A stretch of 64,000 nt of DNA from Candidatus Midichloria sp. (GTDB lineage Bacteria; Pseudomonadota; Alphaproteobacteria; Rickettsiales; Midichloriaceae): positions 67,737 through 131,736 of the forward strand of contig CP094379.1 of assembly GCA_030060845.1 (NCBI GenBank). The letters run 5' to 3'. The notes under the pieces were generated by a model. The model had not been told where the DNA came from. It saw only the letters and a program-made list of their open reading frames with translations, and did no database searches. Shown here in pieces: positions 30,755-56,354 of the stretch. The position numbers and the translations under genes were made by a program. Numbering within the stretch: the first letter of the stretch is position 1; each line of letters starts with the position of its first letter.

Positions 30755-31318
30755 ATGCTAGGGCAGTGTAGTTGCTAATCTGGTCAGATCCAAAAAGAAG
30801 CAGCCATAACAATCAAGTTGGGTCTAGCTTTTCCCCCTTGTATCTTTTAGTGAGTTGCTTAATCTTGGGTTTTGATAAGTGTACAAAGCAGTTTTGAATT
30901 AGAAAAGCATGGTTTTGAAATAGCAGTTATTGAAACAAATAGCGATGCAAATGTCTCTGCCTCAAAAGATTTGCCTGAAAATTAGATATGCACTCTATCA
31001 TGGCAAACGCAGATACTAAACTTGACTAAAAAATCTTTAAAAAATGTGCCGTATGTCATACTGTTGAAAAAGGAGGAGCTAGTAAAATTAGTCCAAATCT
31101 TTGGGGTATAGTAAATGCTATTACTGCATAAAAATCAGACCTTGCAATATTCTGCTGCTATGCCTGCTCGTGCTCAGCAAAATCTAAAGTGGGACTCATT
31201 ATATAGATGTTTACATGCCCCTAAAAAACTAGTTCCTGGAACGAAAATGGCTTTTGCAGGCCTCAAGAAAGATGATGAAAGAGTAAAATTTAATAGCATA
31301 CTTAAGAATGTTGTCTAA
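30755..31318 (+). pseudogene. Membrane-anchored cytochrome c (CycM/c2-like), frameshifted
   Basis: [24 protein letters not shown] (CxxCH at 31045-31059) and APKKLVPGTKMAFAGLKK in a different frame. Confidence 0.88.
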
Positions 31319-42420: not shown

Positions 42421-43544
42421 ATGGCTGATGCAAAAACAATAGTTGTCGCAAAAGGAGATGGGATTGGGCTGGAGATTATGGATTCAGTGCTAGATATATT
42501 TAAATTTGCTGGGGCAAGACTTAATTTTGAATTTATTGAAATAGGTGAAAAGCTTTTATAGTCAAGGAATTTCAACTGGTATATTAAGAGAAGCTTGGGA
42601 TGCTATAAAAAAGGCACAAGATTTTATTAAAGGCTCAGATTACTACTCCGCAGGGTAAGGGATATAAAAGTTTAAATGTTACTTTTTTAAGAAAAGTATT
42701 AGGTTTATTTGCTAACGTTAGGCCTGTTGTATTGTTCCAGTCATTAATAAATGGCCTTAATAACAAGATGAATATGGTGATCATAAGGGAAAATGAAGAA
42801 GATTTGTATGCTGGCTCAAGTATCGATCAACAGAAAGCAGCTATCTATCTCTTAAGCTAATCTCAAAAGCAGGGTATGAGAGAATTATTAATTTACTGCA
42901 GATAATTATATAGTTGATATAGTGATTACTAGAGTTGCAAAAAAACCACAGTTGGTTGATGTAATTGTGACTTTGAACCTTTATGGTGATATTTTATCTG
43001 ATATAGCAGCAAGAAGTATCTGGCTCTGTCGGGCTTACTGGAAGTGCCAACATTGGGGCAGAGTACGCAATGTTTGAAGCGGTATATGACTCAGCTCCAG
43101 ATATTGCAGGTCAAAAATATATCTGGTTTTTTAAATGCTGCGATTTTGATGCTGGATCAATATATGGCAACAGAATATTGCTGCTAAAATTCAGAATGCG
43201 TGACTTAAAATTATTGAAGATGATATGCATACTGTTGATATATTTAATCAAGCAAGCAGAAAGAAGCTTTCTACAAGGAAGTTTACAGAATTGGTGATTG
43301 CAAACTTAGGTTCCATTCTAACTCAGATTAAAGCTATTGAGGTCAAATTTTCGGAAAAAATACTGTGCGATTAGAGCTAGCAAGTCAGGTAAATAGAAAA
43401 ATGATGGAAGTTGATATTTATTTGATGAATCATAAAAAATCAGTGAAAGATTTTCAATCTCAGAGCCTGAAATTGGATTTAAATAATTATGATAGCATTG
43501 ACGGTTTTTTAAAAGCGCAGGGTGGAGTAACTAAATTCCAATAA
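42421..43544 (+). pseudogene. icd: Isocitrate dehydrogenase (Rickettsia-type), multiply frameshifted
   Basis: VAKGDGIGLEIM, ITTPQGKGYKSLNV, LFANVRP, IRENEEDLY, NLYGDILSDIA, GSVGLTGSANIG, MFEAV..SAPDIAG in shifting frames. Confidence 0.9.
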
Positions 43545-52016: not shown

Positions 52017-54734
52017 TTATTTTGCAACTGGGAGAGTAATGAGGAATTCCGTATATTTCCCATGTTCAGAGTTACATTCTATGATGCCACCCATGTTATG
52101 AATTAGTATACCACAAAACGCTAACCCAATACCTGTGCCTTTAGTGCCCTTTTCATGAAAAGGCTTAAACAAGTTTTTCATGTACTCTGGTTCAATCCCA
52201 ATACCGTTATCTTTTACACGCAAAGAGTTTCCTTCAACTAATATAGTGATTTTTGCATCCTCTCCGGCATACTTAAAAGAGTTGTTAATAAGGTTCTTTA
52301 AGACCTGCTTCATATATTGCTTAGTTCCAAAAAACTTGAAATCATTTACCTGTTTCAAAATAATTCTGTTCTTTTTCTCAGCTTCAAGCATGTAATCCTC
52401 TAAAACTTCTTGGATAACTTCAACCATTGAATAAATTGAGCCATATTCAATGCCACGATGCTTTAAGAGCATTAATAATACATCAACAACTTTTTTAGCC
52501 TCTTTTGAAGTTTTCACTAAATCATATGGTAAACTTTCAAATATCATCTTATATTCTGCTTCTGGTATGGTAAGTACATAGTTAATGGATCTGTCTTCTT
52601 GCTCCTTTTTTACTACTTCTTTACTTGAAATTGCAGCTAAATCAGATAAGGTCATTGCAATCATTTGAATTGTGGCGATAGGAGTGTTAACTTCATGTGC
52701 TATAGCGCCGCCAAATAGCTCCATATGCTCTAATCTTTTTTCCTGGACCCTTTCCTTATCTCTAATAAAGAGGAACATTATTATTAATAAAAATCCATAA
52801 AGGTAAAATAAAAGTAAAATATCTCCTGAATGAGTATAGTATGGGTAGACTTGATAAGATAGGGAAGTATATAGCAGGTAACCCACAAAGGATCCAGAAA
52901 GCATCAATACACCAAAGCTAATCCAATCAGTTATGATAAATAATAAGATAATAGATAAAATTGCATTTAATAGCCAAAACTCACTAGTATAAGTAACGAA
53001 AATGGTGTAACTTGCAGTAAATGGTATACAGAAGAATAAGCAAAAATACCAATAGAGTGCGTAATATCTGTTTTTAGATTTTTTCGTCCAATATTCGGCA
53101 AATAGTAATATAAGACACAATAAAATAGATAAAACACGCAAATAAATAATAGAATCGTGCAAAACATTTCCTGTTACATTCACTACAATCAAAGGCATGA
53201 AATAATTTACAGCTATGAATAAGCAAAAAGAATGGCTTGTGGTACCACTTTTTTCAATTTGACTCTTCATGAAGGCGGCAGTTACGCTATAAATTTTTTC
53301 TATTTTTTTCTTGGATACTATATTAAGTCTCTCTAACTGCTCATAACCGTATCGTTTTTCTCCATATTTTTGTAAATAGTGAATAGCAAATAAACTAAAC
53401 CCACTCCCTAGAATTCCTAAAATTAAACTAATTATTGAAAATTCACCGGCTATCAAATACCATACTGAAATAAAAAATATAGCTAAAATTGTTGAAATAA
53501 CAAAAGATAAGGTGCTTGCTTGAAAACCTAAGAAGCCAGCAGCTAAAGGAACCAAAATAACTGGTTGCCAAAAATTATCTACCATCCATAGCAGTGAGAA
53601 GATATTGCCTTTTGATAACGCTAAAAGTGTAGCTAAAATAGTAATTATAAATATTGAGGTATATATTATAGATAATTCTTGCTTTATAGTAACATCTGGG
53701 GATATTTTTTTTATAATATTCTCTGTACATATTAAACTCGCATAATTAAGCCATGAATTAGCTGAGGACACTATAACTGTAATTAGGCCTGCAATCATTA
53801 AGCCCTTAATTCCAGTACTGATATAACTTGAAATAAAGTGCATGAAGGCAAACTTTGAATCTAGTTCTGGAAACTTTACTTTTATTAGAAAGGAGATACT
53901 GCAAGTCATTATAGTAAATGGAACTGCTAGAGCCATTACTACTTTCAAAGATCTTATAAGTTGGGCCTTGTTATAAGTCATTAAGAACCGTTGTACATGC
54001 ATGCTTTCTGCAGCAGGAAGCATGCTATAAAGTACTAGACTTAAAAACACCCATATATTCGATAAATTGAGATTTAATTTGAATAAGTTTGGCTGAGTGC
54101 TTTTAGTTATAGCTTTATATCCTCCGATATCATGATAAGCTGTATAGCAAGCCAGTGATAGCGCGATTAGAAAAATACATAAGTAAAATACCTTTATGAA
54201 ATCAACCTGCTTTATTCTACTTATAATTGAGTAAATGGTCATTATCAAAAAGCTTATAGCAATGCTTACGCTATAGGAAAAATCAAAAAAATAACTAAAA
54301 ATATATCCAAGAGCTGCTATTTGGCAGGCCACTATTCCTTTTCCAAAAAGTACTGTCGCAATATCTGTAACCCATTTACCAGGAAGCCCATAAAGCTTCT
54401 GCATTACATCACTTATTGATAGGCAGCCCTTAAATTCTCTGATACGCTCTCCGTATACTTTAAGTACAAATAACCAAGACAAGGGAGCTATGATTCTAGG
54501 AATTGCGAAAAATAAACCGTATAGATAAATATTTTCTATCGCACCAATTGTAATAGTGCTTATTAAGACAGCAAGTATTGCTGAGATAACAACAATATTA
54601 TGCCATCTACCATGGTCACTAATTGAATATTCGTTAATATTATTGATGCTTCTTGCTTTATAAAAAGCTATTGCTAAATAGCCAATCATATAAACAAAGA
54701 TAATAATTCCATCAATAAGTTCTAGAGATCCCAC
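52017..54734 (-). CDS. Sodium:solute symporter (SLC5)-histidine kinase hybrid sensor
   Basis: N-terminal ~13-TM SSS-like region (VQRFLM, GLMIAGL..VSSANS), H-box AIAHEVNTP, N-box NLINNSFKY, DNGIGI, GTGIGL. Confidence 0.9.
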   Translation of the reverse strand: MGSLELIDGIIIFVYMIGYLAIAFYKARSINNINEYSISDHGRWHNIVVISAILAVLISTITIGAIENIYLYGLFFAIPRIIAPLSWLFVLKVYGERIREFKGCLSISDVMQKLYGLPGKWVTDIATVLFGKGIVACQIAALGYIFSYFFDFSYSVSIAISFLIMTIYSIISRIKQVDFIKVFYLCIFLIALSLACYTAYHDIGGYKAITKSTQPNLFKLNLNLSNIWVFLSLVLYSMLPAAESMHVQRFLMTYNKAQLIRSLKVVMALAVPFTIMTCSISFLIKVKFPELDSKFAFMHFISSYISTGIKGLMIAGLITVIVSSANSWLNYASLICTENIIKKISPDVTIKQELSIIYTSIFIITILATLLALSKGNIFSLLWMVDNFWQPVILVPLAAGFLGFQASTLSFVISTILAIFFISVWYLIAGEFSIISLILGILGSGFSLFAIHYLQKYGEKRYGYEQLERLNIVSKKKIEKIYSVTAAFMKSQIEKSGTTSHSFCLFIAVNYFMPLIVVNVTGNVLHDSIIYLRVLSILLCLILLFAEYWTKKSKNRYYALYWYFCLFFCIPFTASYTIFVTYTSEFWLLNAILSIILLFIITDWISFGVLMLSGSFVGYLLYTSLSYQVYPYYTHSGDILLLFYLYGFLLIIMFLFIRDKERVQEKRLEHMELFGGAIAHEVNTPIATIQMIAMTLSDLAAISSKEVVKKEQEDRSINYVLTIPEAEYKMIFESLPYDLVKTSKEAKKVVDVLLMLLKHRGIEYGSIYSMVEVIQEVLEDYMLEAEKKNRIILKQVNDFKFFGTKQYMKQVLKNLINNSFKYAGEDAKITILVEGNSLRVKDNGIGIEPEYMKNLFKPFHEKGTKGTGIGLAFCGILIHNMGGIIECNSEHGKYTEFLITLPVAK

Positions 54735-54794
54735 AAATCCCCCTATTATATAGTATAGCAGCCTGTTTTAAAAAGCCAATGTTGTAAATCGTAC

Positions 54795-56174
54795 TCAAGA
54801 TTTATTTTGTATAACTTGTAGAAGAGTTTTGTCTATTAAGCCAGGAGATTCTGATATAGTTATTCCTGCACTTTTCATAACTTCAATTTTACTTTCTGTA
54901 GTATCGCTTCCTCCAGAAATAATGGCACCAGCGTGCCCCATTCTTTTACCGAGCGGAGCAGTACGTCCAGCAATAAAAGTAACTACAGGTTTTTTTATTT
55001 TGCTTTTTTTTATAAAATGGGCTACATCAGCTTCAGCATTTCCACCGATTTCTCCAATCATAATAACTACTCCCGTATTAAAGACTGGCAAATTCAAGTG
55101 GGCAGTATCTACTTTTCCAGGAGTTACTCCCACAACCATTTTTATTCCATATTCTGCTTGTTCAGAGTGAAATGTACCTTGTTGTCCGGTAAAACCCTGG
55201 CATATTACTTTGGTTGTAGCATTAACTCCGATTGCCTTAACTATTTTTTCAGCGGCATCATTTAAGTTATTAGCAGATTCAACAGCTAACCTAGAATTGT
55301 TGATGATCTCTTTACTTTTTTCTGCATTTGTGTCTTCTAAACGCACTGCAACTAGTACTTTAATCCCGACTTCTTTTGCAGCAGTTACAACACCGTTAGC
55401 AATTACGTCACAGTGCATTATACCACCAAAGACGTTAATTAAAATACCTTTAACTTCCGGATCAGCAGTAATAATTTTAAATGCTTCTGTAACTTTTTCA
55501 GTAGTTGCACCTCCTCCAACACCAAGGAAATTTGCTGGCTTGCCCCCATGCAGTTGTATTATATCCATAATTGCCATTGCAAGACCAGCACCATTGACTA
55601 TGCACCCTATATTACCGTCCATTTTTACATAGTTTAGATCAAAATTTGCGGCTTGAACTTCTAAAGCCTCTCTTCCATCTGGATCGCCCAGAAAGGTAAT
55701 ATCTGGATGCCTATAAAGGGCATTAGAATCGAAGTTAAATTTTGCATCTAACGCTACAAAATCTCTTTTGTTAATTTCAATTAACGGATTTATTTCAATC
55801 TGGCTTGCATCATTGTATAACGATTTAACAAAAAAAGTAAATTTCTTGCCTTGGGCAGAAGTAAATTGGAGTGCTGAAATAATATATACTCTTTTAACTA
55901 TTTTACCTTTTGGTTCAGTTTGATGCGTAACCAGCTTCATACTTAACATAGATTTTGCAGTTGGTTTTACTAAAGTGATATCATTAAGTACTTTTACTCT
56001 ACCAGCCTTACCACCTCCGCCAGCATGTATCTGTGCTTTAACTACCCAAACTTTTGTATTTAATTTTTTAGCAACAGACTCTGTTTCAGAAGATGAGAAA
56101 ACTACATATCCTTCAGGAACTTTAACTCCATATTTTGAGAGAAGATCTTTAGTTTGATATTCATGTATGTTCAT
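54795..56174 (-). CDS. In-frame SucC-SucD fusion with internal deletions (succinyl-CoA synthetase relic)
   Basis: SucC motifs [29 protein letters not shown] joined at ~55229 to SucD motifs [22 protein letters not shown]. Confidence 0.9.
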
Positions 56175-56354
56175 CAAAATATCCCTAAGCTTCACATTTC
56201 ATCAACTATGATTAATACATTATTTTTATATTAATGACAACTAATTTTAACTTGATAAGAATATATTTTTGTATGAATTTTTTTATATTTAGTACCATTT
56301 TATATTTAGTACTATTTTTTGTATTTGCATTGATTTTTTGTAAAATTTCTGTAA

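Follow-up and report, generated by a model that had tools for sequence, protein, structure and literature searches.

Pseudogenes that continue to be transcribed are a known feature of reductive bacterial genomes, including those of Mycobacterium leprae and Sodalis glossinidius. In Escherichia coli operons, premature stop codons lead to Rho-dependent termination of transcription, the phenomenon known as nonsense polarity. Both phenomena bear on a single ORF (open reading frame) in the genome of the Candidatus Midichloria symbiont of the tick Ixodes holocyclus, which we studied within a 64,000 nt stretch of contig CP094379.1 (positions 67,737 to 131,736 of the forward strand). This whole stretch is called the window here, and its numbering is used throughout, except for genome coordinates, which carry the prefix C1, and one contig position in a relative's genome, prefixed L002. 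The ORF is a relic of sucC and sucD, the genes for the two subunits of ADP-forming SCS (succinyl-CoA synthetase), which five deletions have collapsed into one continuous frame. As a tentative reading, held at somewhat less than even confidence, we propose that the relic is a dead, fused remnant whose translation is still selected, probably against polarity on an intact histidine kinase gene that lies downstream.

The nearest known kind of element is the transcribed pseudogene of a reductive genome, and the intact frame is what sets the relic apart from it. The relic is like such pseudogenes, including the fragmented genes of this same symbiont (PMC11650858), in its lost pathway, its relaxed constraint and its probable transcription. 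However, typical pseudogenes in this genome carry about four frameshifts and two stop codons per kb, whereas the relic has none despite its five deletions. The likeness to nonsense polarity lies in an apparent co-transcription with an intact downstream gene, in an intact rho (an open frame of 582 aa, with a PF07497 match of 111 bits) and in the fact that the only lesions missing are those that would stop translation. The likeness has its limits, in that it is a proposal that the kinase gene depends on the relic being translated, and other operon-internal pseudogenes of this genome show no such bias.

The descent of the relic from SCS is clear. Its locus and its neighbours are those of the intact Midichloria operon, and it has kept the phospho-histidine motif GHAGA of the ADP-forming SucC/SucD enzymes (E. 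coli SCS, PDB 1SCU/2SCU; NF001913, NF004230), as an earlier first-pass annotation of the letters alone had noticed. Unlike these enzymes, the relic is short of 65+5 residues in the ATP-grasp domain and of 145+1 in SucD, its subunits are fused, its ligand-binding residues are replaced (R54G, D288G, G44V and G45D) and its SucD score is far under the cut-off. Natural SucC-SucD fusions of about 670-690 aa (P0007-P0010, P0013 and P0016) also join SucC and then SucD in a single polypeptide, as in the relic, but they keep all four domains at full length; the relic has lost a third, and was fused by a 25 bp deletion in a decaying gene.

The closest relatives of the symbiont are also Candidatus Midichloria: a metagenome-assembled genome of the H. 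scupense symbiont, which we compared over its first 841 kb, and a 1,183,732 bp complete genome of the same genus. Both have an intact sucC (388-389 aa) and an intact sucD (291-293 aa) at the same locus, and in all three genomes the neighbours are a HIT-family gene upstream and a 900-aa sensor kinase gene downstream. The I. holocyclus lineage has been described as the long-branched sister of all other Midichloria (10.1101/2022.05.16.490919), and the three-taxon distances that we computed agree with that position. Its 933,600 bp single-contig genome holds no sucCD-like copy other than the relic. From its native ATG, the relic frame runs for 459 codons and a TAA (Table 1), in agreement with the 460 open codons and native start of the first-pass annotation, and neither a frameshift nor a premature stop was found anywhere across the 459 codons. 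A GTG start would extend the ORF to 466 aa (54795..56195, (-) strand).

Breakpoints were defined by DNA alignment with the two intact Midichloria orthologues. Relative to both, the relic has five gaps and no insertions, and all five losses (D1-D5) keep the frame. The first-pass annotation had called every deletion in frame, which holds for all five, and had placed four of them correctly; the fifth, the 3 bp loss D4, had been overlooked. The mapping of breakpoints and microhomologies that it had proposed gave microhomologies of 0-4 nt at the five junctions, which carry no information on mechanism. Successive deletions are separated by 68, 585, 72 and 82 nt and so are loosely clustered. The fusion of the two genes can be attributed to D3, because sucD is in the +1 frame relative to sucC (in an intact relative it starts 1171 nt after the sucC start) and the length of D3 is of the form 3n+1. 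The two smallest losses fall in columns where orthologues show no gap (71 orthologues for D2 and 67 for D4), and are therefore unlikely to predate the loss of function.

Deletions of this kind could in principle be errors in the genome record, as a hybrid assembly of long and short reads (10.1101/2022.05.16.490919) can hold indel errors. We found no support for such an origin and consider it scarcely conceivable. The exact 459-aa product is present on contigs from 12 independently assembled sequencing runs, and the 10 of these contigs that were fetched, from ten runs, are 100% identical to the window DNA, without gaps, from 56203 to 54784 or beyond, so that each spans all the junctions. An error source common to all the runs and to the genome is implausible for independent libraries; an assembly artefact was thus rejected, and the junctions are real.

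Frameshifted pseudogenes abound in this genome, and against them the retained frame of the relic truly stands out. Among 859 conserved ORFs compared with the 1.18-Mb relative, 480 appear intact, frameshifts or stops break about 374, and just five are open with in-frame deletions of at least 60 nt; sucC and sucD are the extreme cases among these five. Overall, some 330-370 of the conserved genes count as decayed. Across 350 decayed genes, there are per kb about 3.95 frameshifting indels, 1.21 in-frame indels and 1.98 stops, with in-frame indels making up 0.17 of all decay events. The number of genes per genome expected to have all their events in frame is 0.005 for at least five events, 0.03 for at least four and 0.2 for at least three. 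The retained 1.38 kb should hold about 2.3 stops at 0.043 neutral substitutions per site, and the probability of finding none is 0.09; from the genome-wide ratio of frameshifts to stops, about twice as many frameshifts as stops would be expected too. The relic has neither. Between 1 and 16 disrupting events, with a median of 8, are found in decayed genes whose replacements look just as neutral. Single-base indels, which are the commonest lesion elsewhere in the genome, are absent from the relic, despite homopolymers of T7 (55830-55836) and of A8 and A7 (54990-55011) in its ORF, all of them unslipped. The A8 run is longer than the A6 of the sister genes, and such runs are typical slippage sites.

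The first-pass annotation had estimated that four neutral indels would all keep the frame about (1/3)^4 of the time. This figure ignores the multiple testing inherent in about 350 decayed genes, yet in another respect it is an understatement, as there are five events, no stop and no single-base indel. Overall, it is probable that selection of some kind has kept the frame of the relic open.

What has been kept open is almost certainly not the frame of a succinyl-CoA synthetase, and its sequence indicates that the product would be unable to bind ATP or CoA in the normal manner. Pfam recognizes four pieces: ATP-grasp_2 (positions 1-102 of 202), a complete Ligase_CoA domain, CoA_binding (positions 3-54 of 97) and a second stretch of Ligase_CoA. 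In terms of the E. coli enzyme, residues 1-102 of the relic correspond to SucC 1-102, residues 119-315 to SucC 189-385 and residues 366-450 to SucD 199-282. The ATP-grasp domain is incomplete, being reduced to its PF08442 1-102 match by the deletions, and its altered GGGG motif lies at 56027-56001; the CoA-binding Rossmann domain of the SucD part (PF02629) is incomplete too, and its GKGG has become GKVD. The Ligase_CoA domain of SucC, at full length, bears four radical changes at conserved sites, namely D288G (NFLD to NFLG), P344L, G351D and G357S. The SucC part scores 390.2 bits with NF001913 (cut-off 370) and 358.6 with TIGR01016 (cut-off 375.55), whilst the SucD part is below both curated cut-offs (153.3 bits against 336 for NF004230 and 144.2 against 353.2 for TIGR01019).

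To these losses can be added the replacement of residues that hardly vary elsewhere. Conservation across 65-69 non-Midichloria orthologues reaches at least 95% in 121 of the retained columns; 12 of these bear lineage-private replacements in the relic, and none does in either of the two intact sister lineages. Apart from the four in the Ligase_CoA domain, these are R54G, G59R, T272I and I318V in the SucC part, and G44V, G45D, A218V and A260T in the SucD part, so that all parts of the relic protein are affected. The loss of SCS activity, which the first-pass annotation had argued from altered motifs, is borne out by the missing ATP-grasp core, the missing half of SucD and these 12 changes. Two of the motif changes that it cited (GGRG to GGGG and NFLD to NFLG) are specific to this lineage; the third, MRCD to MHCD, is real, but the intact gene of the H. 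scupense symbiont has it too, and it is not diagnostic.

By two independent measures, the protein sequence of the relic is very probably free of constraint and drifts as that of a pseudogene. The first measure is the conserved-site count. The second is the radicalness of the 55 replacements specific to the lineage, which have a mean BLOSUM62 score of -0.44, with 47% of the scores negative. Random non-synonymous mutation of the relic gene would give -0.33 to -0.38, whilst the mean is +0.62 for intact genes, +0.25 for pooled broken genes and +0.87 for the changes that the sister lineages made in these codons. When the intact-gene pool was resampled 20,000 times, no draw was as low as the sucCD mean, and sucC has the third lowest mean among 218 genes. 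Four of the five segments of the relic have negative means, including the SucC C-terminal domain (-0.50); the SucD C-terminal segment stands at 0.00. The conserved-site count and a BLOSUM mixture alike place the neutral divergence since the loss of constraint at about 0.04 substitutions per site, with a lower bound of 0.022.

The dN/dS ratio (omega), a check that the first-pass annotation had suggested, proved uninformative. A Nei-Gojobori branch decomposition over 450 retained codons in three taxa gave a dN of 0.062, a dS of 0.444 and an omega of 0.14 (bootstrap 0.09-0.19) for the relic lineage, and an omega of 0.12 for the intact sisters. Pairwise omega is 0.088 for intact genes, 0.16 for broken genes and still 0.11 for the icd pseudogene, because the decay is young in comparison with a branch whose dS is about 0.44; branch dN/dS was rejected as a test of function, as icd and the pooled broken genes also look constrained. 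Lineage omega divided by sister omega gives 1.06-1.17 for sucCD, 1.14 for 57 broken genes and 0.74 for 301 intact genes, and in this respect sucCD behaves like the broken genes and unlike the intact ones. The automated three-taxon set lacks sucD owing to a 1-nt insertion in the gene of the H. scupense symbiont, and sucD was included through a hand-built alignment. The insertion (L002:6030-6047) is near the 3' end of that gene, whose last residues are QVYTK instead of QVIQNKS.

The pathway to which SCS belongs has gone as well. The TCA (tricarboxylic acid) cycle is lost in the I. holocyclus symbiont, and much of the respiratory chain is fragmented or absent. By NCBIfam identity, gltA is fragmented in three frames (C1:251598-252313); sucA persists as two small pieces and sucB as one 150-aa piece (C1:405197-406184), sdhB is in two pieces (C1:723385-723790), and tblastn of the whole genome gave no match to sdhA or fumC. 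Within the window, icd (42421-43481) has 11 indels in all, eight of them frameshifting, and one stop, and cytochrome c (30956-31312) has three frameshifts and two stops, just as the first-pass annotation had described these two genes as full of frameshifts. Also broken are nuoB, cydB and cytochrome b (C1:578140-579332); atpD and cydA are still intact. The consumer of succinyl-CoA in haem synthesis, hemA, is reported to be absent in this symbiont (PMC11650858), and haem synthesis therefore needs no succinyl-CoA.

With its metabolic partners gone, the fused product might still have been put to other use. The frame could be kept by selection on a new, non-SCS function of the 459-aa protein, based for example on the SucC C-terminal domain and the phospho-histidine loop. 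Such a function would fit the retained frame, the retention of the native start and of a Shine-Dalgarno-like sequence, the probable transcription of the ORF, and the survival of GHAGA and of one complete Ligase_CoA domain. The natural full-length fusions indicate that fusion as such is viable, and a protein with a changed function would likewise be expected to lose constraint at its former ligand-binding loops. An AF2 (AlphaFold) model, computed from a 76-row alignment, has a mean pLDDT of 79.7 and a pTM of 0.55. It is predicted with confidence over the SucC C-terminal domain, where the means of 10-residue blocks across residues 171-310 are all at least 79 and mostly at least 90 (range 79-96), whilst pLDDT falls below 50 at residues 53-57 (the GGGGK loop), 100-106 (the D1 junction) and 416-418 (the His loop). 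The model, which the first-pass annotation had proposed as a test for a compact fold, mostly mirrors the homologues on which it leans and does not settle foldability.

Several lines of evidence make a new function improbable. Replacements are as radical as random mutation in every segment but the C-terminal one of SucD, and the best-preserved domain is no exception; D1 and D5 cut through domain cores rather than removing whole modules. The low pTM, with poor confidence at the D1 junction and the His loop, and the disappearance of all the metabolic partners also count against it. No similar short fusion was found elsewhere, as the other short fused matches are frameshift read-throughs or cut genes: P0019, P0021 and P0070 were rejected as out-of-frame read-throughs in high-GC genomes, and P0018 as lacking an N-terminus. 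The repurposed mini-protein envisaged in the first-pass annotation is thus not borne out by replacements as radical as random mutation, or by changes in 12 of 121 ultra-conserved residues.

Neutral drift of a protein inside an intact frame is the pattern expected of selection on translation, not on the product. The symbiont has dismantled the whole TCA cycle, and the sucCD operon survives as a dead remnant, from which the five deletions have removed the ATP-grasp core, the stop/start junction and half of SucD. In the model that we favour, the relic RNA, starting at 56203, would run without a terminator into the intact histidine kinase gene, and selection would act on whether this stretch is translated, not on the protein that results. 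If a premature stop cut translation short, some 1 kb of RNA upstream of the kinase gene would be free of ribosomes and open to Rho-dependent termination or decay; in-frame deletions and missense changes would cost nothing. The former enzyme gene could in this way have become a translated spacer, encoding a junk protein in a frame under purifying selection, on which ribosomes protect the kinase transcript, a proposal that we put at a little under an even chance. What the first-pass annotation had suggested as selection against truncated products would survive here in modified form, as selection against the premature termination of translation.

The relic is probably transcribed from the old sucC promoter, with a start at 56203. 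Nine of 10 public run assemblies begin exactly at this position, where one contig has the Illumina read-2 adapter and GG directly before it and two others have one to three bases more; the read-1 adapter, in reverse complement, forms the end of two contigs, and k-mers around 56203 are unique in the genome. The sharp common end and the untemplated G point to the 5' end of an RNA, not to the end of a DNA fragment. Hexamers resembling -35 and -10 elements lie at a suitable place (Table 1), and were missed by a consensus scan because the -10 hexamer lacks its final T. At least eight public contigs cross the spacer into the kinase gene, reaching 54016, and a scan of the spacer found no terminator-like site, which suggests that the relic and the kinase gene share one transcript. 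The kinase gene is constrained, with a lineage omega of 0.10; an exact look-up of its 905-aa product in public records gave no match. A strong ribosome-binding site, AGGGGGA, is present in the spacer.

An Australian tick metatranscriptome, PRJNA777641, was made with the Zymo RiboFree total RNA kit (PMC9790515), and a later study mapped its libraries to this symbiont (PMC11650858). The public runs (SRR16767xxx) may belong to that project, judging from accession range, host and kit, a link that is unverified; a literature search for the run accessions gave no match.

Table 1. Coordinates of the relic, its deletions and the neighbouring elements (window numbering; each deletion is given by the two bases that its junction joins)
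Feature	Position	Strand	Remarks
Fused sucC-sucD relic ORF	54795..56174	(-)	459 codons + TAA from native ATG at 56174
SucC N-terminal ATP-grasp remnant	55881..56174	(-)	aa 1-98; GGRG to GGGG and G59R; PF08442 1-102/202
SucC C-terminal Ligase_CoA domain	55239..55601	(-)	PF00549 1-128/128; relic residues 192-312
Phospho-histidine loop GHAGA, kept	54924..54938	(-)	relic residues 413-417
D1	55881/55880	(-)	195 bp = 65 codons; ATP-grasp core strands and hinge; no microhomology
D2	55813/55812	(-)	15 bp (KAFIE)
D3	55228/55227	(-)	25 bp; last 2 sucC codons, TAA, spacer, ATG and 3 more sucD codons (SIL)
D4	55156/55155	(-)	3 bp = 1 codon
D5	55074/55073	(-)	435 bp = 145 codons; second half of CoA-binding domain and first half of SucD C-terminal domain
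-35-like hexamer TTGTCA, sucC promoter	56235..56240	(-)	17-nt spacing to TATTAA; conserved in the two sister genomes
-10-like hexamer TATTAA	56212..56217	(-)	8 nt upstream of 56203; alternatively ATTAAT, 56211-56216; conserved in sister genomes
Probable transcription start (G)	56203	(-)	29 nt before ATG; shared contig end
Shine-Dalgarno-like AGGGA	56182..56186	(-)	7 nt before ATG
Spacer between relic and kinase gene	54735..54794	(-)	60 nt; 85-88% identity to each sister genome, a conservation like that of coding sequence
Membrane sensor histidine kinase ORF, intact	52017..54734	(-)	905 aa; NCBIfam histidine-kinase matches

A number of observations weigh against selection on translation of the relic. 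If polarity were at work throughout this genome, decayed genes just upstream of intact co-directional genes might be expected to keep their frames more often, and they do not: the in-frame share is 0.159 in 86 such genes, compared with 0.171 in 246 others. No general polarity effect was found across these 86 operon-internal decayed genes, and polarity is therefore not a general force in this genome. The relic RNA also appears to be a poor Rho substrate, with more G than C (287 versus 207) and a C/G ratio of at least 1.5 in only 4 of 217 windows. The spacer holds two overlapping promoter-like matches (TTGGCT-16-TATACT and TTTAAA-16-TATAAT), which could serve the kinase gene. The RNA nature of the public libraries is deduced from contig ends and from the unverified link to PRJNA777641. 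Transcription is reported to be widespread, and at times strong, among the fragmented genes of this symbiont (PMC11650858), and its occurrence in the relic therefore proves little. Lastly, the five deletions may represent fewer independent events (for example, D1+D2 and D3+D4+D5 as two complex events), which would make the argument against chance much weaker, and at a neutral age of 0.022 per site the probability of finding no stop is 0.3, so that its absence would be unremarkable.

These last two points favour an explanation by chance, in which the relic is an ordinary, fairly young pseudogene, with deletions in frame by luck and no frameshift or stop as yet. Rare outcomes are expected somewhere among about 350 decayed genes. 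If only three deletions are counted as having followed inactivation, the expectation is 0.2 such genes per genome, and two complex events would each have odds of about one in three of keeping the frame. The lack of a general in-frame bias in operon-internal pseudogenes and the neutral drift of the relic protein are what chance would predict. However, five independent events reduce the expectation to 0.005 genes per genome, and at about 0.04 substitutions per site neither the 2.3 or so stops nor the frameshifts, about twice as numerous, that are due by now have appeared. Chance must also account for the gap between the relic and equally neutral-looking decayed genes, with their 1-16 disruptions, and for the T7, A8 and A7 runs that have gained no single-base indel. 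We consider it unlikely, although far from negligible, that the relic is a chance survivor.

The relic is of moderate interest because its frame may have been kept by selection on translation. If that is true, the locus is a clean natural case in which operon polarity limits the ways in which a gene can decay, selection in a reductive genome shapes decay by permitting in-frame deletions and missense changes only, and some 'open' ORFs of symbiont genomes would be relics that act in cis, not protein genes. For annotation, the relic ORF should not be named succinyl-CoA ligase, and the I. holocyclus symbiont should be treated as having no TCA cycle. As well as concerning this locus, our results show that function is poorly supported by an open frame and a low dN/dS across a whole branch when the genome has decayed recently; here, counts of changes at ultra-conserved sites and the radicalness of replacements separated dead from live genes much better than dN/dS did.

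In the public record, the only product for 54798-55244 is the 149-aa P0121, which is the SucD-derived tail of the relic. It starts at a non-canonical codon within the fused ORF, and the fused frame is not annotated as one gene. Four genomes from other genera of the same family, one of them only 54% complete, gave no sucCD match, and loss of SCS may be recurrent in the family. Elsewhere in the genome, an ORF of 1.5 kb (C1:697174-698427, the counterpart of o931 in the relative) has ten in-frame indels with no frameshift or stop, at 71% DNA identity, and looks fast-evolving but live.

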